Part shown: positions 2,597-13,620 of the stretch, in pieces
Layout of the letters: each line of letters opens with the position of its first letter
Position numbering within the stretch: the first letter of the stretch is position 1
Assembly: GCA_013331805.1 (NCBI GenBank)
Contig: DUFS01000058.1
Location: forward strand, 1-13,764
Direction: 5' to 3'
From: Candidatus Micrarchaeota archaeon
Lineage (GTDB): Archaea; Micrarchaeota; Micrarchaeia; Anstonellales; Anstonellaceae
DNA: 13,764 nucleotides
Translations under genes and position numbers: made by a program
The notes under the pieces: generated by a model
The model's input: the letters and a program-made list of their open reading frames with translations, nothing else
The model's database searches: none
Told to the model about the DNA's origin: nothing

Positions 2597-3634
2597 TCAC
2601 TTTACAATGAACAGCGCCTTTTGCAATAGCGGGTCTGAAAGATGGTATTTCCCATCTTTCTTTTCTACGAACGAATAGTCGACCAGCCTTCCAAGCGCAA
2701 AATTGAACAGGTTGGGGTTCAGCTGCTTTCCGAGCTCCCGCCCTGTTCTAGCCCTAAGCTCATCCCAACCGATACCGTCCGTGCTTCTGAGCATGCCAAT
2801 GTAGAGTTTCTTATTCTTGGTTTTTTTAAGAAAATGCACCAGTTCCGAAGCGGCAATCTGCGCTGCCCTTTGGCTTGTTTTTGCCAGTGCATCCTTGCTT
2901 CTCCTTATGCCCCTCTCATAGCCATATAGCGTGAGCCACCCTATCAGGCCACCAAGCTCTGCCACTGCACAGTCAATCTCGTCTGCGTCGATGCCTATCC
3001 CCAGCTGTTCAAATCCCTTCCCCAAATATTCCATCGCCTTGCTCTTATCAAGCCGGTTCATCACCACCTTTGTTATCTCCCTCCCGTACAGCGGGTGTTC
3101 CGAGTCGCTTTCGCCAAGGATTTCCTCAACCAGCCCTATTTCGCTTCCGGATATCACAAAAGAAACATGGGGGAAACGGTCATAGATGTAGGAAAGAACA
3201 TCCGCCAGGTCCTTCACTTTCATTCTTTGGGCCTCATCAACGAATACGCAAATTTGTCCGGAGCTCCGAATCTTCTTTTCCATCTCATTCTGGCTTCCGT
3301 TATCAAGCTTAATGTCAAACCCGACGCCAAAAGCGGAAAGGTTGAGGCTCTCTATTTTCCCGAAAATCTTTGGCTTGCCGGTTTTTGCAGTTTCGTAGAT
3401 TGCGGCAAAAACCTCCTTTTTCGGGTCAGCGACAATCCTGCCGTCGAGCCACAATTTCAGCCCCTTTGTTTCGTTATAAATCAAGTTGAGGAGGCTGGTT
3501 TTGCCCACCCGCCTGACCCCGACAACGGCGATTATCTTCTCCTTCCTCTCCAGGGCTTTCTTGACCTGCCCATATTCATAATCGTAATTGAAGAAGTCCT
3601 GCTTATTGCTTTTCGGCTCTATCTCGAAGTACAT
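2597..3634 (-). CDS. Archaeal AAA+/STAND-like ATPase (COG1672/ATPase_2 type) with C-terminal winged helix
   Basis: MYF...DFFNY N-terminus, Walker A GVRRVGKTS, Walker B VFVDEAQ, ISGSEIG, PLYGR, GGLIGWL, C-terminal wHTH ending L..YSFVEK.DGKYHLSDPLL. Confidence 0.88.
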   Translation of the reverse strand: MYFEIEPKSNKQDFFNYDYEYGQVKKALERKEKIIAVVGVRRVGKTSLLNLIYNETKGLKLWLDGRIVADPKKEVFAAIYETAKTGKPKIFGKIESLNLSAFGVGFDIKLDNGSQNEMEKKIRSSGQICVFVDEAQRMKVKDLADVLSYIYDRFPHVSFVISGSEIGLVEEILGESDSEHPLYGREITKVVMNRLDKSKAMEYLGKGFEQLGIGIDADEIDCAVAELGGLIGWLTLYGYERGIRRSKDALAKTSQRAAQIAASELVHFLKKTKNKKLYIGMLRSTDGIGWDELRARTGRELGKQLNPNLFNFALGRLVDYSFVEKKDGKYHLSDPLLQKALFIVK

Positions 3635-3793: not shown

Positions 3794-3857
3794 CCCCTTT
3801 TTCCTTGTTATGCGGGGCATGAATCCGATGAAACAACGCAAAATCCAGAAGGCTTCA

Positions 3858-3980
3858 GCATCGAGCAGCGGCTCGATGTCTGATGCGTTTTCCCAAGGAA
3901 AACGCGCATCGTCTCCTTTCTCCCCAACTGCTTCGCAAAGCGCAAGTGTTGCAAATATTGCCACGATGCGTCGTGGCAGT
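3858..3980 (+). other. Cluster of three perfect hairpins upstream of the conserved ribC core (candidate structured leader or palindromic insertion)
   Basis: CATCGAGC-agcg-GCTCGATG (3859-3878); GCGTTTTCC-caa-GGAAAACGC (3885-3905); TGCCACGA-tgcg-TCGTGGCA (3959-3978). Confidence 0.6.
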
Positions 3981-3989
3981 GCTTCTCAG

Positions 3990-4454
3990 TTGCGGATCGG
4001 GATAGTCGACACCATGTTTGCCAGGGTGGACATGGCTGCGTTTGCTGTTGATGAGATAAAGGGGAAGTTTCCTGGTGCCAGAATTGTGAGGAGCACTGTT
4101 CCTGGAGTGAAGGATCTGGCAGCAGGCTGCGTGATTCTGGACAGGAAGGAAAAGTGCGACGTTTACTTGGCGCTTGGCATGGTGGGAAAGGAGCCCATTG
4201 ACACGCAGTGCGGACATGAAGCTTCAATAGGCATACAGATGGCAAAGATGCTGCTTCGGAAGCACATAGTGGAAGCATTCGTGCATGAGTTTGAGGGAAA
4301 GGATGAGAAGGATCTTTATTCAATTTTCGAGGACAGGACAAGGAAGCACGCTGTGAATGCCGTTCTTCTGGTTTCCGACCCGAAGCAGTTGGAAAGGTAC
4401 GCGGGAAAGGGAAAGAGGCAGGGAAGAAGCGATGCTGGGGAGATAAAGAGGTAA
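3990..4454 (+). CDS. ribC: Archaeal-type riboflavin synthase (lumazine synthase paralog)
   Basis: RIGIVDTMFARVDM, TVPGVKDL, CGHEASIG, HIVEAFVHEFE, RTRKHAVN, AGKGKRQG match the archaeal RibC family. The homologous core begins at an in-frame TTG at 3990, but the frame is open back to ATG 3810, so the start is uncertain. Confidence 0.9.
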   Translation: MRIGIVDTMFARVDMAAFAVDEIKGKFPGARIVRSTVPGVKDLAAGCVILDRKEKCDVYLALGMVGKEPIDTQCGHEASIGIQMAKMLLRKHIVEAFVHEFEGKDEKDLYSIFEDRTRKHAVNAVLLVSDPKQLERYAGKGKRQGRSDAGEIKR

Positions 4455-4458
4455 TGCC

Positions 4459-4884
4459 ATGGAAGAAAAAAAAGTGAGGATCGGGATAGTGGGCTCGCAG
4501 TTCAACCTGGAGATAACTGCGCCCATGCTTTCGGAAGCGGTAAGCGAGGCGAAAAGAAAGGGTGCCGAAGTCGTTGCCGTGCTTGAGGTGCCGGGCGCTT
4601 ATGAAATACCGTTTGCGGTCTCCAGGCTTCTTGCCAGAAAGGACATTGACTGCGTGGCAACAGTGGGCGCTGTGATAAAAGGGGAGACCAAGCACGACGA
4701 GGCGATAATGGCGGCGATATGCGCTGAGTTGCTTTCGCTTTCTGTGAGGCATGGGAAACCCGTGGGGCTCGGCATTTCCGGTCCTGGGCAGACAGAGGCG
4801 CAGGCAAAGGCAAGGGTGAAAGACTATGCGCACAGGGCTGTGCATGCCGCGCTTCACATGGCGAAATTGAAATACCAGGGCTAG
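4459..4884 (+). CDS. ribH: 6,7-dimethyl-8-ribityllumazine synthase
   Basis: IGIVGSQFNLEIT, VPGAYEIP, GAVIKGETKHD, KPVGLGI motifs; GAGGT RBS upstream overlapping the ribC stop. Confidence 0.95.
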   Translation: MEEKKVRIGIVGSQFNLEITAPMLSEAVSEAKRKGAEVVAVLEVPGAYEIPFAVSRLLARKDIDCVATVGAVIKGETKHDEAIMAAICAELLSLSVRHGKPVGLGISGPGQTEAQAKARVKDYAHRAVHAALHMAKLKYQG

Positions 4885-5973
4885 GTGCTTTTTTTGGAAT
4901 GGAATGCAAGCGACAGGAAGTTCATGAAAAGGGCGCTTTTACTTGCGGCTAAGGGCGAAGGCAGGGTGTCACCCAATCCGCTGGTCGGCGCTGTTGTCGT
5001 GAAAAAGGGAAGGATTATTGGCGAGGGGTACCACGAAAAGTTCGGAGGGCCGCACGCAGAGGCGAATGCGCTGCGGGGAATTGATGCTGCTGGCGCTACT
5101 ATGTACGTGACACTGGAGCCCTGCTGCCCCTGCGTGCCGAAAAAGAAAACCCCTGCCTGCACGCCGCTTATTGTCAGGTCCGGCGTTACGCGCGTGGTGA
5201 TCGGGGCAAGGGACATACACCCCAATGTTTGCGGGATCGAGGAGCTGCGCGCTTCTGGGATAAGGGTGGAGGAAGGCCTGCTGGAAGAGGAATCGAAAAG
5301 GCTGAACGAACCTTTCATCTGGCGCTTGAAGACAGGGAGAGCCTTCTCTGTGGCAAAAATGGCGCAGTCCTTAAACGGGAGAATAGGCATAAGGGGAAAG
5401 GCAAGGGTGTGGCTTTCGGGAAAGGAGTTTGACAAATTCGCGCAGGTGATGCGGAGCAGGTACGATGCAATACTGGTCGGGATAAACACTGTTCTTGAGG
5501 ATGATCCCGCGCTCACATGCAGGATAAAAGGCGGAAGGAATCCGGTGAGAATAATCCTGGACAGCGCCCTTAGGGTTCCGCTTGGCGCAAAGGCTCTGAA
5601 GAATGCCAAAAGGGAGAAAGTGATCGTGGTTTCAGGCAAGGGGGGTACTAGGGGAAAAGCTGCAGCCTTGAGGAAGATGGGCGTGCGGGTGCTGCCGCTC
5701 GGGAACGGGAGAGTCTCGATAAAAAAGCTGCTTTACCTGCTGCCCAAGCTCGGGATAAGCTCCGTGATTATCGAGGGGGGCGCGAAAGTGACAGGCTCTG
5801 CGCTTGCCGAGGGAGCAGTTGACAAGGCTGTGGTGGCAGTCAGCAGGAAGAAAATTTTGGGAAGAGGGGCGGTAGCCTCGCCGTTCACGAAAAAAACGAT
5901 CCAGGGGCTCAGCAGGAGAAAAATGGGAAAGGACACGGTATACGAAGGCTACCTGAGCGAATACTCGAAATAG
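4885..5973 (+). CDS. ribD: Bifunctional diaminohydroxyphosphoribosylaminopyrimidine deaminase / 5-amino-6-(5-phosphoribosylamino)uracil reductase
   Basis: Deaminase: SPNPLVGAV, G.H...G.PHAE, YVTLEPC...C. Reductase: KMAQSLNG, DAILVGINTVLEDDPAL, IIEGGA. GTG start abuts the ribH stop; ATG 4924 is an alternative. Confidence 0.95.
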   Translation: MLFLEWNASDRKFMKRALLLAAKGEGRVSPNPLVGAVVVKKGRIIGEGYHEKFGGPHAEANALRGIDAAGATMYVTLEPCCPCVPKKKTPACTPLIVRSGVTRVVIGARDIHPNVCGIEELRASGIRVEEGLLEEESKRLNEPFIWRLKTGRAFSVAKMAQSLNGRIGIRGKARVWLSGKEFDKFAQVMRSRYDAILVGINTVLEDDPALTCRIKGGRNPVRIILDSALRVPLGAKALKNAKREKVIVVSGKGGTRGKAAALRKMGVRVLPLGNGRVSIKKLLYLLPKLGISSVIIEGGAKVTGSALAEGAVDKAVVAVSRKKILGRGAVASPFTKKTIQGLSRRKMGKDTVYEGYLSEYSK

Positions 5974-5990
5974 CCGTCCCAGGGGTTCTC
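5949..5990 (-). pseudogene. Orphaned 3' end of the gpmA-like gene (ENPWDGYFEYSLR*)
   Basis: Minus strand reads GAG AAC CCC TGG GAC GGC TAT TTC GAG TAT TCG CTC AGG TAG. The first 11 aa are identical to the C-terminus of the 7024-7662 protein. It overlaps the last 25 nt of ribD. Confidence 0.85.
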
Positions 5991-5991
5991 A
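5962..5991. repeat. 30-bp direct repeat, copy 1 (left flank of the Fic cassette)
   Basis: TACTCGAAATAGCCGTCCCAGGGGTTCTCA; 28/30 identical to 7040-7069. Confidence 0.92.
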
Positions 5992-5995
5992 GGCT

Positions 5996-6910
5996 TCACC
6001 TTTCAGTTTCACTCCTGAGAGTGTATTGCCCGACCAGCTGCCTTCCTAAGAAATTGGCAAAAGGCTTGTTGTCCCCAGCGTCGCCAGCCTCTATTGCGGA
6101 ATAATACTCCTGCTTGTTCTTCACGTAGATGATGACCGGCGGGAAGCGGTTTTTAATCAAAATCCAGTTGAGGATAAGCCTTGCCGTGCGCCCGTTCCCG
6201 TCGGTGAATGGATGGATTTGCACGAATCGGTTGTGGAGCCAAGCAGCAAGCTCGATTGGGTGGAGCTTTTTCCGTTTCTTTGAATATTCGGCGCACATCC
6301 CTTTCATCTGTTTTGGCACGTGTAGGGGGCTTGGGGGCCTCCATTCCGAACCAGTGATGCCGACCTGCGAATCGCGGTATTCGCCCTGGATGCGGCAGGC
6401 TGTGTTTTTCGTGACGTGGTATTGCAGCTTTTTGACAAATGCTTCGCTTAGCTGGCCCCTGTTGGCTTGTGCAAAATCCCAGGCATCCTTTCCGTTGATT
6501 GCCTCAATCACCGAGTCCGTGCCAGTGCCCTGGGGGGCGATTTTATCCGCCAATACGAGGGCGGTTTCCCTCAGGGTGAGCGGATTGCCCTCGATGGCAT
6601 TGGAGTTGTAGGTGAAGCGGATGACGAAGTCCTTTGGAATGGCGTCTTCTGGAAAGGACTTGAAAATGACTGCGGATGCGCGCAGGTCTTCGAGCTGTTC
6701 GGCAAGATCAACCTCCAAATGCTCGGCAGAATACGGCTTTGGGGCTTTTTTCTCAATTTCGACAAGCAATTCCTGTAGTTTCTCCCTTGGCGGCACTATC
6801 GGCCCAAGGAAAATCCTGACCTTTTTGACCTTGGTGGGTGAAACCCGGAAGCTTTTGACAAGGTAATAATAGGTGTGTGCCCCGTGCTTTTGCTTTTCTA
6901 TGAATGCCAT
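5996..6910 (-). CDS. Fic family protein (class II, autoinhibited AMPylase) with N-terminal beta-strand domain
   Basis: Canonical HPFTDGNGRTAR Fic motif and upstream inhibitory motif SNAIEGN (S/TxxxEG/N). N-terminus MAFIEKQKHGAHTYYYLVKSFRV...KVKKVRIFLG. Confidence 0.93.
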   Translation of the reverse strand: MAFIEKQKHGAHTYYYLVKSFRVSPTKVKKVRIFLGPIVPPREKLQELLVEIEKKAPKPYSAEHLEVDLAEQLEDLRASAVIFKSFPEDAIPKDFVIRFTYNSNAIEGNPLTLRETALVLADKIAPQGTGTDSVIEAINGKDAWDFAQANRGQLSEAFVKKLQYHVTKNTACRIQGEYRDSQVGITGSEWRPPSPLHVPKQMKGMCAEYSKKRKKLHPIELAAWLHNRFVQIHPFTDGNGRTARLILNWILIKNRFPPVIIYVKNKQEYYSAIEAGDAGDNKPFANFLGRQLVGQYTLRSETER

Positions 6911-6913
6911 TGT

Positions 6914-6990
6914 ATGGCTACAAAGTTAAAGTATATAAATATTGTGCCCATAATGACTACAAATATAGATATTATATAAAATGTAGCCAT
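6914..6990 (-). promoter_or_regulatory. Fic promoter: two tandem 39-bp inverted-repeat units, each enclosing a TATA-like element
   Basis: ATGGCTACA-N20-TGTGCCCAT (6914-6951) and ATGACTACA-N20-TGTAGCCAT (6953-6990). TATATAAA at 6932-6939 and 6973-6980; the first lies about 21 nt from the Fic ATG. Confidence 0.75.
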
Positions 6991-7023
6991 ATGATCAAAT
7001 TGTTGTCGCCTCATACCGGACGG

Positions 7024-7662
7024 TCAGATTTTGATGCTGTACTCGAAGTAGCCGTCCCAGGGATTCTCAAGTGACATCATTTCCTTAATCGAAAGCTTCT
7101 CAAAGTGCCTGCGGAAGGGGCGCATGGAGTTGCCGTGCGCCGATATTGCCACGTTCACACGGTTCTTCTTCATGTATGGAAGAAGGTCGCGAAGGAAGGC
7201 CATCACCCTTTTTTCCACCATTTTTATGCTTTCTCCCCCTGGAGGCGGGCGGCCGTAGCTTCTCCTTATGAGATGGAGCTCGGCATCAGTGTGCGTTCGC
7301 CTGTAGCGGTCGTGCGAGGTGCCTGACAGCTTTCCGTAGCTCCGCTCTATCATCCGGTCGTCGATGAATACTGCCCTGCACTCCGGATGGGATTTCAGCA
7401 CTTCAGAAAGCGTGTCCCTGGAGCGGGAAAGCGAGGTCTGGAAGGAAACGTCGATTTTCTTGCCGGAAAGCTTCCTTGCGATTTTTTTCGCCTGCGCCTT
7501 CCCGAATGGCGTGAGGCGCGAGTCCTTCCAGCCAGTGAAATAGCGGTTTTTATTGAAATAGGTCTGCGCGTGCCTGAAAAGGTAGATGGTCGGGCGGCTT
7601 CTTGCGCCCTTGATTGCGCGGCGCTTCCACCTGCCCGAAAAGTCAAGGCCGGATTTTTCCAT
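7024..7662 (-). CDS. gpmA: 2,3-bisphosphoglycerate-dependent phosphoglycerate mutase-like protein (histidine phosphatase superfamily)
   Basis: RHAQT..N....FTGWKD, ERSYG.LSG, IRRSY..PPPGGES, AHGNSMR dPGM-type motifs. Start moved to ATG 7662 because the TATA element lies at 7683-7690. Confidence 0.8.
   Translation of the reverse strand: MEKSGLDFSGRWKRRAIKGARSRPTIYLFRHAQTYFNKNRYFTGWKDSRLTPFGKAQAKKIARKLSGKKIDVSFQTSLSRSRDTLSEVLKSHPECRAVFIDDRMIERSYGKLSGTSHDRYRRTHTDAELHLIRRSYGRPPPGGESIKMVEKRVMAFLRDLLPYMKKNRVNVAISAHGNSMRPFRRHFEKLSIKEMMSLENPWDGYFEYSIKI
7040..7069. repeat. 30-bp direct repeat, copy 2 (inside the gpmA 3' end)
   Basis: TACTCGAAGTAGCCGTCCCAGGGATTCTCA; 1078 bp from copy 1. Confidence 0.92.
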
Positions 7663-7682
7663 GAACAAAGTGGGGCGGCAAG

Positions 7683-7690
7683 TTATAAAT
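7683..7690. promoter_or_regulatory. Single centrally placed TATA box, probably bidirectional
   Basis: TTATAAAT (+) / ATTTATAA (-) in a 50-bp divergent gap, about 20-22 nt from ATG 7662 (-) and ATG 7713 (+). Confidence 0.7.
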
Positions 7691-7712
7691 TCCTTGCACT
7701 GCAATCCCCCTC

Positions 7713-8348
7713 ATGGCAGAAACGGTTTTCCTGGTGCGCCACGGCGAGGCGGAGTCGAACGCAGGCAAGTATTTCGCAGGCTGGCTTCCCGACTCCCTCA
7801 CCCCGCTGGGAAAGCGCCAGGCAGTGGTGCTCCGCAAGAGGCTGGCAAAGGAGGGCATAGGAAAGGCGTTCTGCTCTGACCTTGCAAGGGCAAGGCAGAC
7901 CCTGGAGGCGATGGCGCTGCCCTGCAGGGTCGAGTATTCGGAGGCGCTCCGGGAAAAGTCATACGGAAAGTACGAAGGCCTGAAATGGGGCGAGGACGAG
8001 GACAGGTTCGACAGGTACCACATGGACGCCTATGCCCGCGCCCCTGGCGGGGAGAACGCAATCGAAGTCCAGAGGCGCGTGGTGGCATTCTTCGGCTCCA
8101 GGGTATTCAACGCAAGGGAGGAGAAGGTGCTGGTGGTGTCGCACCACGGCCCGATAGTTCTTCTTGCCTGCCATCTTCTGGGCATGCCGCTTTCGAACTG
8201 GAGGAAGCTCCGCCTGGGCAACTGCGGCTTGTGCATACTCACGCGCGAGGGGAAAATGTGGCGGCTCAAGCTGTGGAACTCCCTTTCGCATTTCGGCCTT
8301 GCGTCATTTTCGCCTCTGCTGTCAAAGGAAAAAAGAGCCAGCCGCTAG
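7713..8348 (+). CDS. Histidine phosphatase family protein (CobC/GpmB/PspA-like)
   Basis: LVRHGE, LTPLG..QA, SDL.RA.QT, LREKSYGKYEG, PGGE, VVSHHGPI, L.NCGL; lacks the dPGM-specific RRSY/HGNS motifs. Confidence 0.9.
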   Translation: MAETVFLVRHGEAESNAGKYFAGWLPDSLTPLGKRQAVVLRKRLAKEGIGKAFCSDLARARQTLEAMALPCRVEYSEALREKSYGKYEGLKWGEDEDRFDRYHMDAYARAPGGENAIEVQRRVVAFFGSRVFNAREEKVLVVSHHGPIVLLACHLLGMPLSNWRKLRLGNCGLCILTREGKMWRLKLWNSLSHFGLASFSPLLSKEKRASR

Positions 8349-11409: not shown

Positions 11410-12948
11410 TCACTTGGCAATCTTCTTCATGAGGCTGTCGCGGTCCTCGTAATACTGGACTATGACCTTGCCTACCTCCTCCACGCTGTTTATCTTCTTG
11501 TCAGCAAGGTAGTGCAGGACACGGGCGCGCTCCTTTATCGAGGCCTTGATCTCCTCGTCGTCCATGCGCGTGTAGGTGCGGAGCGTCTCCAGCATGCGCA
11601 CGCTGGGGTTCTCCTCCTCGATCTTGTCGCGGCTGGAGCGCCAGCGGTAAACGATGTTCGCCCTGACGCTCTCGCCCTTTTCGGACGGGATGAGCTCGCC
11701 GATCTCGAACACGCGGCGGATGCCGCTCCTCCTGTCCCTGTACATTGAAAGCACAAAGTGCAGCGACTCCAGCACCACTTCCGGAAGCTCGATCGGGGGG
11801 CTGACCAGCCGCTTGAATGTTTCAAACACGGTTTCCGCGTGCATGGTCGCGTAGACCGAGTGCCCTGTGTGCATTGCCTCGAACAGCACCTCGGCCTCCT
11901 CTGCCCTGCGGATTTCGCCCACAATGATCCGGTCCGGGCGCATACGAAGAGAGTTCACCATCAGGTCCAGCATGGAGACCGAGCCCCTGCCGTCCCTGCC
12001 GCCCTCGCGCACCACCATGGGCACCCATTGCAGGTAGGAGGGGAGGGTGATCTCCCTGGTCTGCTCGATTGAAATTACCCTCTGGTTCTGGGGAATGAAA
12101 TTGCAAATCACGTTCAGTATCGAGGTCTTGCCCGCGCCCGTCCCTCCTGAAACCAGTATGTTCAGCTCGTACTGCATGGCAAGCCAGATGAATGCGGCCA
12201 CTTCCTCGGAAATGGTGTTCGTGAGAATCAGGTCAGTTATTGTCCAGGGCTTGCGCGCGAATTTCCGGATCGTGATGGTGTTCCCGAACATGGATATGGG
12301 TGTGAGCGTTGCGTTCACGCGGTCCCCGGAAGGGAGATACGCGTCGAGCAGCGGGTCCTGGGCGGTTATCTGCCTGCCCACTCGCCTTCCAATGAGGCTT
12401 GCGTAGTCCCAGATCTTAGCCTCGGTTTCCACCCTCAGGCTGCAGATGCACCATCCGTATTTCTTGTGGTAGAGCCAAATGGGCTCGCGGGCGGAATTGA
12501 TGCAGATCTCCTCCAGCCCGTCGTCGTGGAGCAGGAATTCCAGGTCGCCCATGCCCAACAACTCCTGCACCATGCGGCCTGCAAGCTCCTGCGCCTTCTG
12601 CTCGGTCAGCCTGGGGATCCTGTCTTTCACCAGTTTCAGCGCAAGCTCGTTGAATTTCCTCTTGAGCTCCGCCATGAGCTTGATATCCAGCACTTCCGCA
12701 GTGGTCAGCCTCACCTGCCTCAGAAGCTCTGTCTTCACTGTTTCAAGGTAGGCTGCTGTCGCAGGCTCTGGCCGGGGCACGACTACCGAATAAAAGGGCA
12801 CCTCCGCGGGCTTCTTGGAAATCGTTATGGTGGCCTCGATCCCGTCCGCGGAAATCTTGTAGCTCTCAAAAAGCTTGGCTGCGCCTTCCCTCTGGGCTTC
12901 TGGCTTTTGAGCCTCGGTTTTTGACGCGGCCTCTCTGGTCCCACCCAT
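11410..12948 (-). CDS. Type IV pilus/secretion assembly ATPase (CpaF/TadA/VirB11/FlaI family)
   Basis: ITIRKF, Walker A SGGTGAGKTS, LRMRPDRIIVGEIR (Walker B), His box MHTGH...TMHA. Confidence 0.95.
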   Translation of the reverse strand: MGGTREAASKTEAQKPEAQREGAAKLFESYKISADGIEATITISKKPAEVPFYSVVVPRPEPATAAYLETVKTELLRQVRLTTAEVLDIKLMAELKRKFNELALKLVKDRIPRLTEQKAQELAGRMVQELLGMGDLEFLLHDDGLEEICINSAREPIWLYHKKYGWCICSLRVETEAKIWDYASLIGRRVGRQITAQDPLLDAYLPSGDRVNATLTPISMFGNTITIRKFARKPWTITDLILTNTISEEVAAFIWLAMQYELNILVSGGTGAGKTSILNVICNFIPQNQRVISIEQTREITLPSYLQWVPMVVREGGRDGRGSVSMLDLMVNSLRMRPDRIIVGEIRRAEEAEVLFEAMHTGHSVYATMHAETVFETFKRLVSPPIELPEVVLESLHFVLSMYRDRRSGIRRVFEIGELIPSEKGESVRANIVYRWRSSRDKIEEENPSVRMLETLRTYTRMDDEEIKASIKERARVLHYLADKKINSVEEVGKVIVQYYEDRDSLMKKIAK

Positions 12949-12957
12949 GCTATCACT

Positions 12958-13620
12958 TCAAGGCTCGGGCGTGTGCAGCTTCATCTTCCCGAACAGGTTG
13001 TACTCCAGCCTCAAAAGCCCGTTCTTCTCAAGCGAATTGCTGTATTCCTCCACCTCGGCGACAGTGAGGTTGCATTTTTTCGCCACCTCCTCCGCGGTTG
13101 CCGAGCCGCGCCTGTGCACGTAATGCACGATGTGGTCTATCGCGGTATTGCCGCCCAGGTCGTCCAGCTCCTGCGCCTTGTCAGGCGTGCGCACCGGCAT
13201 CTTGCCGCCTTCGGAGAGCATTTTTGCAATCTCCTTCCGGAGGTCGGACACGCGCACCACGCCGATTACCTTCCTCCCCCTGTCCAGCACGGGTATCACG
13301 TCCACATTGCGGTGCACCAGGAGAAGGAACGCGGAAAGCAGGTCAGTGTCCGGGTGCAGCCAGGTCTTGGTGGAGCGTATGTGCTTGCTCACAACGTCGC
13401 TCCTCACCTTCGCGGTGTCCGCCCTGCTCACGCCGAATATCCCCTTCTTCAGGAACACGGCTGCAAGGTCGGATGTCATGAACATGCCCAGAAATCTCCT
13501 GGAGCGCACCACAGGCGCCTCGGACTGGTTACCCTCGGAAAGCTTTTTTGCGGCAAAGGCAAGCGTGTCGTCGGCCTCAAGAACGAGGAAATCCTTGCGC
13601 ATGATGTCAGAAATTTTCAT
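12958..13620 (-). CDS. CBS-pair (Bateman) domain protein with C-terminal winged helix
   Basis: MKISDIMRKD...APVV....LGM.....DL and DVIPVLD....IGVV...DL CBS repeats; C-terminus TAIDHIVHYVHRRGSATAEEVAKKCNLTVAEVEEYSNSLEKNGLLRLEY is wHTH-like. ATG 13620 has an AGGTG RBS; 9 nt separate it from the ATPase gene. Confidence 0.85.
   Translation of the reverse strand: MKISDIMRKDFLVLEADDTLAFAAKKLSEGNQSEAPVVRSRRFLGMFMTSDLAAVFLKKGIFGVSRADTAKVRSDVVSKHIRSTKTWLHPDTDLLSAFLLLVHRNVDVIPVLDRGRKVIGVVRVSDLRKEIAKMLSEGGKMPVRTPDKAQELDDLGGNTAIDHIVHYVHRRGSATAEEVAKKCNLTVAEVEEYSNSLEKNGLLRLEYNLFGKMKLHTPEP

Follow-up and report, generated by a model that had tools for sequence, protein, structure and literature searches.

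Insertion of a fic gene at the 3' end of a gpmA-like gene, with displacement of the old gene end, in a micrarchaeal genome

In a window of 13,764 nucleotides (nt), the first part of contig C81 (19,380 nt) of a Candidatus Micrarchaeota archaeon, a gene for a Fic protein lies between two copies of the 3' end of a gpmA-like gene. It is well supported that DNA bearing a gpmA tail entered here through a crossover within the conserved end of gpmA and displaced the old one, and the event is a variant of known tail displacement and of cassette insertion flanked by attachment (att) sites. The genome (G000) comprises 1.19 Mb in 83 contigs and is 91.5% complete. For comparison, we used the gpmA site in the 20 of the 22 other genomes of the genus that have a gpmA ortholog (67–79% identity), and 79 metagenome loci with gpmA, taken from at least 122 matched stretches. 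Population data consisted of assembled contigs (20 listed runs), which cannot show rare circles or empty alleles; contigs from four runs (X2, X9, X10 and X14) were compared with the window.

The insert between ribD and the gpmA-like gene

The direct repeat at 5962–5991 and 7040–7069 is identical at 28 of 30 positions and measures 1078 nt from start to start. With up to three mismatches allowed, the 30-mer matched these two places only in the window, and two matches arose in none of 200 shuffles. Apart from fic with its promoter, the 1078-bp unit between the copies holds nothing. The right copy lies in the live end of gpmA, and the left copy belongs to a second tail that is an orphan, since stop codons precede it immediately upstream on the minus strand. 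This orphan overlaps the 3' end of ribD (stop codon at 5971–5973) by 25 nt on the opposite strand. These features had been set out in a preliminary description of the locus, and we found them again in the sequence.

The two tails share 11 codons, of which four differ (AAT/AAC, TAC/TAT twice and AGC/TCG). All four differences are synonymous, as had been reported, and the serine codons AGC and TCG differ at all three bases. The DNA of the two copies shows no relation outside the repeat, and both run on to plausible gpmA endings, SIKI in the live tail and SLR in the orphan. The live ending conforms to the pattern x-[IV]-[KR]-[VI] seen in relatives, for example as KIKI and KIKV. Because this is a normal gpmA ending, the insert brought a genuine gpmA tail and not a mere duplication of its target; judging from the sequences, the distal part of the live tail, at least SIKI, came with the insert. 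The earlier proposal that both tails were shaped by selection on the protein finds support in the synonymous differences, but it is weakened by the finding that 25 of the 42 nt of the orphan are also constrained by ribD on the other strand.

The assembly across the repeats is supported. The X2 contig (2762 nt), which comes from another study, covers 5760–8200 across both repeats with eight differences, and contigs of X9, X10 and X14 bridge one repeat each. In addition, metagenome locus L067 has the same arrangement, with Fic and gpmA proteins identical to those of the window. Joints of an empty allele or of a circle were absent from the assembled contigs of the four runs, which cannot show rare forms.

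An empty site was present in nine of the 20 genomes of the genus (G001, G008, G018, G014, G012, G015, G010, G013 and G002). In these, ribD is convergent to gpmA, with anything between a gap of 3 nt and an overlap of 25 nt. The ribD genes of G018 and G014 end in YSK and overlap gpmA by 25 nt, which is the register of the window ribD against the orphan tail, and the DNA past the window's orphan is homologous to the DNA past the live tails of these two genomes. The orphan tail is, by this comparison, the ancestral chromosomal gpmA end, displaced by the insertion, and the idea that ribD and gpmA originally overlapped convergently was thereby borne out. The alternative that ribD arrived together with an old gpmA tail is ruled out, because the synteny of ribD with ribB and the lumazine-synthase-like genes is kept in relatives. 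As for the remaining genomes, gpmA and ribD of G006 are separated by a 1.4-kb insert that contains a transglutaminase-like gene, and the other 10 of the 20 have different genes downstream of gpmA.

The fic gene is the newcomer, since it is absent from the rest of the genus and has orthologs in other genera and in another family. None of the 22 other genus genomes has an ortholog (the best match there is 37% identical), while orthologs were found in another genus of the family (78% identity) and in several genera of another family (59–64%).

The Fic unit and its orthologs

The window Fic carries the active-site motif HPFTDGNGRTAR and the auto-inhibitory motif SNAIEG, both invariant in alignment A1. 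Its best solved relative is human FICD (3e-27), aligned across both motifs. Class II Fic proteins are recognized by an HxFx(D/E)GNGRxxR active site together with an N-terminal (S/T)xxxE(G/N) inhibitory motif, and by its motifs the window Fic falls in this class of auto-inhibited adenosine monophosphate (AMP)-transferases. It also matches the PADLOC candidate-defence models PDC-S04 and SoFic. We take the protein most likely to be a toxin- or defence-type AMP-transferase that is auto-inhibited and self-regulated. Its N-terminus was modelled with fair confidence as three beta strands and a helix, within a whole model of moderate quality (mean predicted local distance difference test score, pLDDT, of 63).

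The roughly 85 nt upstream of the fic ATG contain an inverted pair, ATGGCTACA and TGTAGCCAT, a TATA-like box, TTTATATA, and a third site, again TGTAGCCAT, just before the ATG. The operator-like elements are three 9-nt sites around the TATA-like box. GC content drops to 0.37 in this region. The promoter and operator are conserved in G043, G064, G135, G150, G081, G106 and G090, and more loosely in G174, while the flanks differ. The operator set precedes every Fic ortholog, as at loci L213, L215, L216, L219, L199, L201 and L218. A scan for promoters of sigma-70 type was set aside, as it does not apply to an archaeon. Promoter, operator and gene together look like a portable expression unit that is probably self-repressed, with binding to the operator predicted. 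The operator set suggests that the unassigned N-terminal beta domain may carry out this autoregulation.

Orthologs of the window Fic are solitary and patchily distributed in Micrarchaeota. Their neighbours are housekeeping genes: tmk-tRNA, a Pelota/eRF1-like gene, ArgRS, a methyltransferase and a glycosyltransferase. No integrases were found among the scanned neighbour genes. Four of the orthologs are flanked by perfect target-derived repeats (17–137 nt). They measure 23 nt in both G064 (3' end of tRNA-Glu) and G174 (downstream of tmk), 17 nt in G043 (3' end of the eRF1-like gene) and 137 nt in G135 (5' end of a TPR gene). When viral contigs were scanned with the Fic alignment for a possible vehicle, only distant Fic domains of at most 43% identity and without the N-terminal domain were recovered. 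Among Micrarchaeota, the solitary, self-regulated Fic gene appears unusually transferable.

A 104-nt repeat (88% identical) lies at 4309–4412 and 6221–6324 of L218 (G090), directly beside the Fic ortholog. It duplicates the 3' end of a 241-amino acid (aa) gene and brackets a 112-aa gene and an Orn/DAP decarboxylase gene, and thus represents a tail duplication in another family of the order. The window's genome has a second Fic gene (324 aa, 35% identical) on contig C66 (locus L185). It adjoins a perfect 42-nt repeat (12639–12680 and 13374–13415, 735 nt apart) that brackets a single PIN_2 gene (147 aa). We did not retain this repeat as a clean parallel to the gpmA site: its carrier gene is accessory (present in five of 23 genus genomes), and homologs of that gene end before the repeat.

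Reuse of the gpmA tail and the route of entry

The gpmA tail is a recurrent docking site, used in G000, G003, L106 and L141. When 42 genomes of the family were searched with a degenerate tail pattern, more than one copy was present only in the window's genome (two) and in G003 (three). The order in G003 is gpmA, tail 1, a 413-aa gene, tail 2, a transglutaminase-like gene, a tail scrap, tail 3 and a 357-aa gene, so that the three tail copies separate two cassettes. The product of the 413-aa gene (ORF413, for open reading frame) is 60% identical to that of the frameshifted 357-aa gene (ORF357) behind the last tail. Each of the two resembles the gene that comes after the L141 gpmA tail, and they also have similar upstream regions. 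This likeness indicates that in G003 a newer allele with its own tail displaced an older one. One of the G003 orphan tails is identical to the window live tail at 29 of 29 positions; this match was set aside as evidence, because codon use is shared and variation is possible at only about eight sites.

Among the 79 metagenome loci listed, two-tail contigs were L067, the window's twin, L106 and the pair L141/L142. In L106 the tails lie 113 nt apart and show seven differences, all at third codon bases except in the last codon (Ile/Val). About 0.4 kb past its orphan tail there is a 25-residue fragment, 84% identical to the C-terminus of the retropepsin-like cargo, and beyond it an island that holds a HepT/MNT pair and, besides a DDE transposase, a resolvase fragment. 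Earlier cassettes leave remnants that accumulate at this gpmA-tail site. In L141/L142 the tails are 755 nt apart, and the cargo consists of a 69-aa gene and a gene for a retropepsin-like protease. The L141 cargo proteins are 96–97% identical to those of the genes directly downstream of gpmA in G017, and 90–93% identical to those in G022. The orphan tails of the different events begin at differing points (ENPW, QMMAL, FEKL and TRAQMM), which is how random fragment ends would be expected to look. A search for orphan-tail remnants in another 11 loci, where other genes follow gpmA, gave none with as many as 15 matched bases.

Short repeats bracket single genes elsewhere in the window's genome as well. 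On contig C28 (locus L186), a 45-nt repeat (89% identical; 26772–26816 and 28253–28297, 1481 nt apart) brackets a single AAA_14/DUF4143 ATPase gene, and the 3' end of a different AAA_14 ATPase gene lies within its right copy. On contigs C42 and C41, too, short repeats enclose similar ATPases as cargo. A common core (TCGAA-like) among the different repeats of this genome was considered and judged to be chance.

The topology of a crossover could be read from L141, with G017 as the donor type. The two L141 tails differ at 18 sites, the first four of which lie in the junction region. At the next six sites, proximal to TGGGA, the G017 type is in the orphan copy (6/6), and at the following four it is in the live copy (4/4). 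The informative sites switch once, inside CCGTGGGA. Such a switch is the reciprocal pattern expected of a circle integrating by one Campbell-type crossover. The second junction of L141 is at TTTGA, which is common to the stop-codon region of the cargo in G017/G022 and to gpmA (TTTGAGAAGCT). Because TTTGA is shared by both sides, it constitutes a microhomology joint of the sort that would close a circle, and the L141 circle appears to have been closed there.

In the window, CCCTGGGACGGCTA lies between the two mismatches of the repeat, a position that would allow the crossover to have fallen at the same point as in L141. We searched for a donor allele, a gpmA ending in EYSIKI and followed by fic, and found none in the 20 genus loci or among the 79 metagenome loci listed. 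Tails of other genera ending in SIKC or SIKL were rejected as donors, as they are not alike at the DNA level. Since the donor allele of the window cassette is missing from these sets, the route seen in L141 extends to the window by analogy, and by that analogy the cassette would have entered by a single reciprocal crossover. The earlier proposal that a segment with fic and a gpmA tail of another allele came in by a single crossover therefore stands for the tail, given its genuine SIKI ending, while the crossover has direct support only at L141.

The explanation that we prefer, and to which we give about half of our confidence, is that a tail-bearing fic circle joined the chromosome by one reciprocal crossover in the gpmA end, made by short-homology recombination of the host. 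A 1078-bp circular DNA carrying fic with its own promoter and operator, and also the last ~15 codons of gpmA from another allele, would have entered a genome of Micrarchaeota type. One reciprocal crossover in the near-invariant stretch coding for ENPWDGYFEY would then have joined the circle to the chromosome in the Campbell manner. As a result, gpmA would now end in the tail borne by the insert, and the original tail would have been pushed 1078 bp downstream as the orphan, where ribD needs it because the two overlap. The crossover would be the work of general short-homology recombination and not of a recombinase of the element, with the conserved gene end simply offering the best local sequence identity beside an intergenic position that tolerates insertion. 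The cassette, which has no mobility gene, would now be fixed in the population. Host recombination is favoured by the varying limits of the orphans, by cargo that is plain chromosomal DNA from next to gpmA, and by the one microhomology joint.

Several observations weigh against this explanation. Support for reciprocity is confined to the sister event L141, the donor allele of the fic cassette was not found, and in the last two codons of the L141 tails G017 matches the orphan at three of four sites, which breaks the two-block pattern. The stretch shared in the window spans about 30 nt, of which at most 14 in a row are identical, short for general recombination. Inserts without an orphan tail occur at the gpmA site in G006 and L064, and 13 of the 16 Micrarchaeota Fic loci covered by the operator scan have no flanking repeats (3/16 have them). 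The perfect 23-nt repeats around the G064 Fic gene at the 3' end of tRNA-Glu are a classical integrase signature. The window's genome encodes two tyrosine integrases (PF00589) at other sites, on contigs C60 and C64; among the nine empty-site genomes, six have no PF00589 match, while cassette-rich relatives have many.

The tRNA-Glu case and the integrases at other sites keep a trans-acting integrase a serious rival, though one we consider distinctly less probable. The tails would then be attL and attR of a non-autonomous element, a decayed stump or a unit like a cis-mobilizable element (CIME), and a tyrosine integrase would recognize the gpmA 3' end. That target-derived repeats restore the target gene agrees with this, as does the G003 tandem array, which resembles accretion at an att site, and the window and L141 crossovers are both compatible with a single core, CCNTGGGA. 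The 23/23 repeats of G064 and G174 also fit. PF00589 matches occur in 12 of the 23 genus genomes, among them G000 (2), G003 (17), G017 (11) and G006 (2), the ones that have inserts at the gpmA site. The contrast with the empty-site genomes is not an independent test, because the genomes are related and any transfer-rich genome would show it. No integrase homolog is next to gpmA in the 20 genus loci, and neither the gpmA cassettes there nor the scanned neighbours of the Fic orthologs include one; in the metagenome set, weak and distant matches appeared in two of the 79 loci listed, both from other genera. G043 and G135 have repeat-flanked Fic units without a PF00589 match, at 82% and 77% completeness. 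Also contrary to an integrase are the range of repeat lengths (17–137 nt), orphan starts that vary at one gpmA site, the joint of L141 at a 5-nt microhomology, and the cargo of L141 and G003, which is native gpmA-downstream DNA of relatives and not a dedicated element.

The absence of a recombinase, noted earlier for the window, was confirmed and extends to the rest of the 19,380-nt contig (no PF00589 or PF00239). Of the recombinases in trans for which a search had been proposed, tyrosine integrases are the two on C60 and C64, and serine recombinases (PF00239) are absent from the genome. The 430-aa tyrosine integrase on C64 (locus L190; 5791–7083, minus strand) sits at perfect 24-nt repeats (5452–5475 and 6998–7021, 1546 nt apart). 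One repeat copy is inside the N-terminal coding region of the integrase itself, and a downstream ORF begins with a 74%-identical copy of integrase residues 20–54, an arrangement reminiscent of integrases with an att site in their own gene. Serine recombinases of 256–268 aa (Resolvase and Recombinase domains) lie 1.6–4 kb downstream of gpmA, past a PAC2 gene, in L068, L135 and L080. We rejected them as inserts, as they belong to a conserved gpmA-PAC2-recombinase neighbourhood of other genera. The resolvase fragment of L106 was likewise rejected as a cassette recombinase; it lies 3.6 kb away, within the island that holds the transposase.

Entry of a linear donor fragment by homology-facilitated illegitimate recombination seems unlikely. 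Here the body or tail of gpmA would serve as the anchor, and the far end would be joined illegitimately just upstream of the recipient tail, with no circle. The final map would be the same, the fic stop codon is 4 nt from the junction, which directly abuts the first base of the orphan repeat, and the L141 joint used microhomology. PMC5361080 proposes the mechanism for orphan arrays that follow conserved gene ends in clusters of the Vibrio type VI secretion system (T6SS) and in rhs loci. A linear anchor, however, predicts an orphan wholly of recipient type, while the proximal orphan of L141 is of donor type at 6/6 sites. Finally, a history with no borrowed tail (a transposition-like target-site duplication, an in-situ duplication or a chimeric assembly) is very improbable: the repeats flank the insert directly and some Fic orthologs have perfect short repeats, but the copies run into different complete gpmA endings with serine codons that share no base, there is no transposase, terminal inverted repeat or conserved terminus, and independent contigs span both repeats.

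Gene map and comparison with known systems

The features of the locus are collected in table 1. Against the TIGR01258 subfamily model the target gene scores 92.4 bits (cut-off 81.7); since it does not reach the equivalog models, we call it 'gpmA-like' for safety. The ATG at 7662 is probably its true start. The head-to-head pair of gpmA and the second histidine-phosphatase gene is conserved in the genus (the two adjoin at the loci of 16 of the 20 relatives) and identifies the stable flank of the insertion site. The spacer between the live gpmA stop and the fic promoter has no counterpart at empty sites and is not conserved among Fic units.

Table 1. Features at the ribD–gpmA junction of the window.
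Feature	Position	Strand	Description
ribD	4885..5973	+	last gene of the rib cluster; PF01872, PF00383; TIGR00326 261 bits (cut-off 156)
orphan gpmA tail	5949..5990	-	ENPWDGYFEYSLR, then stop (5949-5951); bears left repeat copy 5962-5991
fic	5996..6910	-	304 aa; PF02661 1.5e-23
fic promoter/operator	6911..6995	-	conserved upstream of Fic orthologs in 8 other genomes
spacer, live gpmA stop to fic promoter	6996..7023	-	part of the inserted DNA
live gpmA tail	7024..7069	-	ENPWDGYFEYSIKI, then stop (7024-7026); bears right repeat copy 7040-7069
gpmA-like gene (target)	7024..7704	-	PF00300; TIGR01258 (pgm_1)
second histidine-phosphatase gene	7713..8348	+	PF00300 5.7e-47; divergent from gpmA

Elsewhere in the window, an ATPase_2/AAA_14 gene (2597–3634, minus strand) lies between ribB, which ends at 2521, and the next rib gene, which starts at 3810. 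These two rib genes are adjacent in relatives (e.g. G018, G010 and G002), so the ATPase gene is a second insertion on the contig. It is flanked only by the 8-nt repeat TGCGGGGC (2564–2571 and 3811–3818), which may be chance. A 349-aa ORF without a family match (3808–4857, minus strand) is antisense to the lumazine-synthase-like genes (3810–4454 and 4459–4884, plus strand). It is probably not a gene, and apparent matches in relatives reflect the lumazine-synthase-like genes.

For rhs, on which PMC5361080 cites Jackson et al. 2009, and for the T6SS effector-immunity arrays of Vibrio cholerae, displacement at conserved gene ends is attributed in PMC5361080 to homology-facilitated illegitimate recombination. 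As described there, new DNA brings a copy of the conserved 3' region and the old end is orphaned, arrays form (as in G003) and no recombinase is associated (PMC5361080), all of which resembles the gpmA site. Unlike in those systems, the duplicated gpmA end is only ~14–26 codons long and belongs to a metabolic housekeeping gene that has no polymorphic function. Nor is the cargo related to the target gene. The host differs too, being a DPANN archaeon, and one gpmA-tail event (L141) has the reciprocal pattern that indicates a circular intermediate.

CIMEs have lost their integration and transfer genes and kept attL and attR, according to PMC6323972. Like CIMEs and integrase-mediated islands at the 3' ends of tRNAs or genes, the gpmA site has an insert without integration genes between repeats of the target 3' end, a restored target and tandem accretion. 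It differs in that no cognate integrase-bearing element was found at the gpmA site in the 20 genus loci or the 79 metagenome loci listed, the limits of the repeats vary, some of the cargo is plain chromosomal DNA of relatives, and the unit is one gene of ~1.1 kb.

Campbell-type integration of a non-replicating circle is mainly a laboratory tool and uses hundreds of bp of homology. As in such integration, the homology is duplicated on either side of the insert and the copies are hybrids of donor and recipient, as seen in L141; unlike in the laboratory, this would be a natural gene gain using 30–90 nt. Integron cassettes share the promoter-proximal stacking of single-gene cassettes at one site, with older ones pushed back. 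Integrons differ, however, in having an IntI gene and attC-type sites, neither of which was found here; the gpmA repeats are coding sequence, and each cassette has its own promoter. The window Fic resembles the class II protein FICD/HYPE, with which HPFTDGNGRTAR and SNAIEG align, but it is predicted to have a different N-terminal domain and is a solitary gene with a palindromic predicted operator. The literature, mainly at the level of abstracts, held no description of tail-flanked or solitary Fic cassettes or of such insertion in DPANN archaea.

How DPANN archaea gain accessory genes is poorly understood, because their genomes are tiny and contain few recognizable mobile elements. The locus is a clean, datable case, with an empty site in relatives, a filled one here and arrays elsewhere. 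Genes were added singly at the end of a housekeeping gene, the target was repaired and no mobility gene was left. A broader idea, which we hold only tentatively and regard as doubtful, is that Micrarchaeota have a recombinase-free exchange of cassettes, in which near-invariant 3' ends of housekeeping genes and tRNAs dock single-gene circles. These would leave by recombination between the tail copies on either side and enter other strains at the same site by one short-homology crossover of the host. The passengers, toxin or defence units, would be Fic, PIN, the retropepsin pair, transglutaminase-like proteins and AAA ATPases, with the Fic unit perhaps the most successful, although this too is a somewhat improbable reading. 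If true, such exchange would be a functional analogue of the integron without an integrase. If host recombination on 30–90 nt suffices, the mere fact that conserved gene ends and tRNA genes stay alike when genomes diverge would be enough to make them hot spots, and this view, if correct, would bear on why genomic islands cluster at gene ends and tRNA genes.

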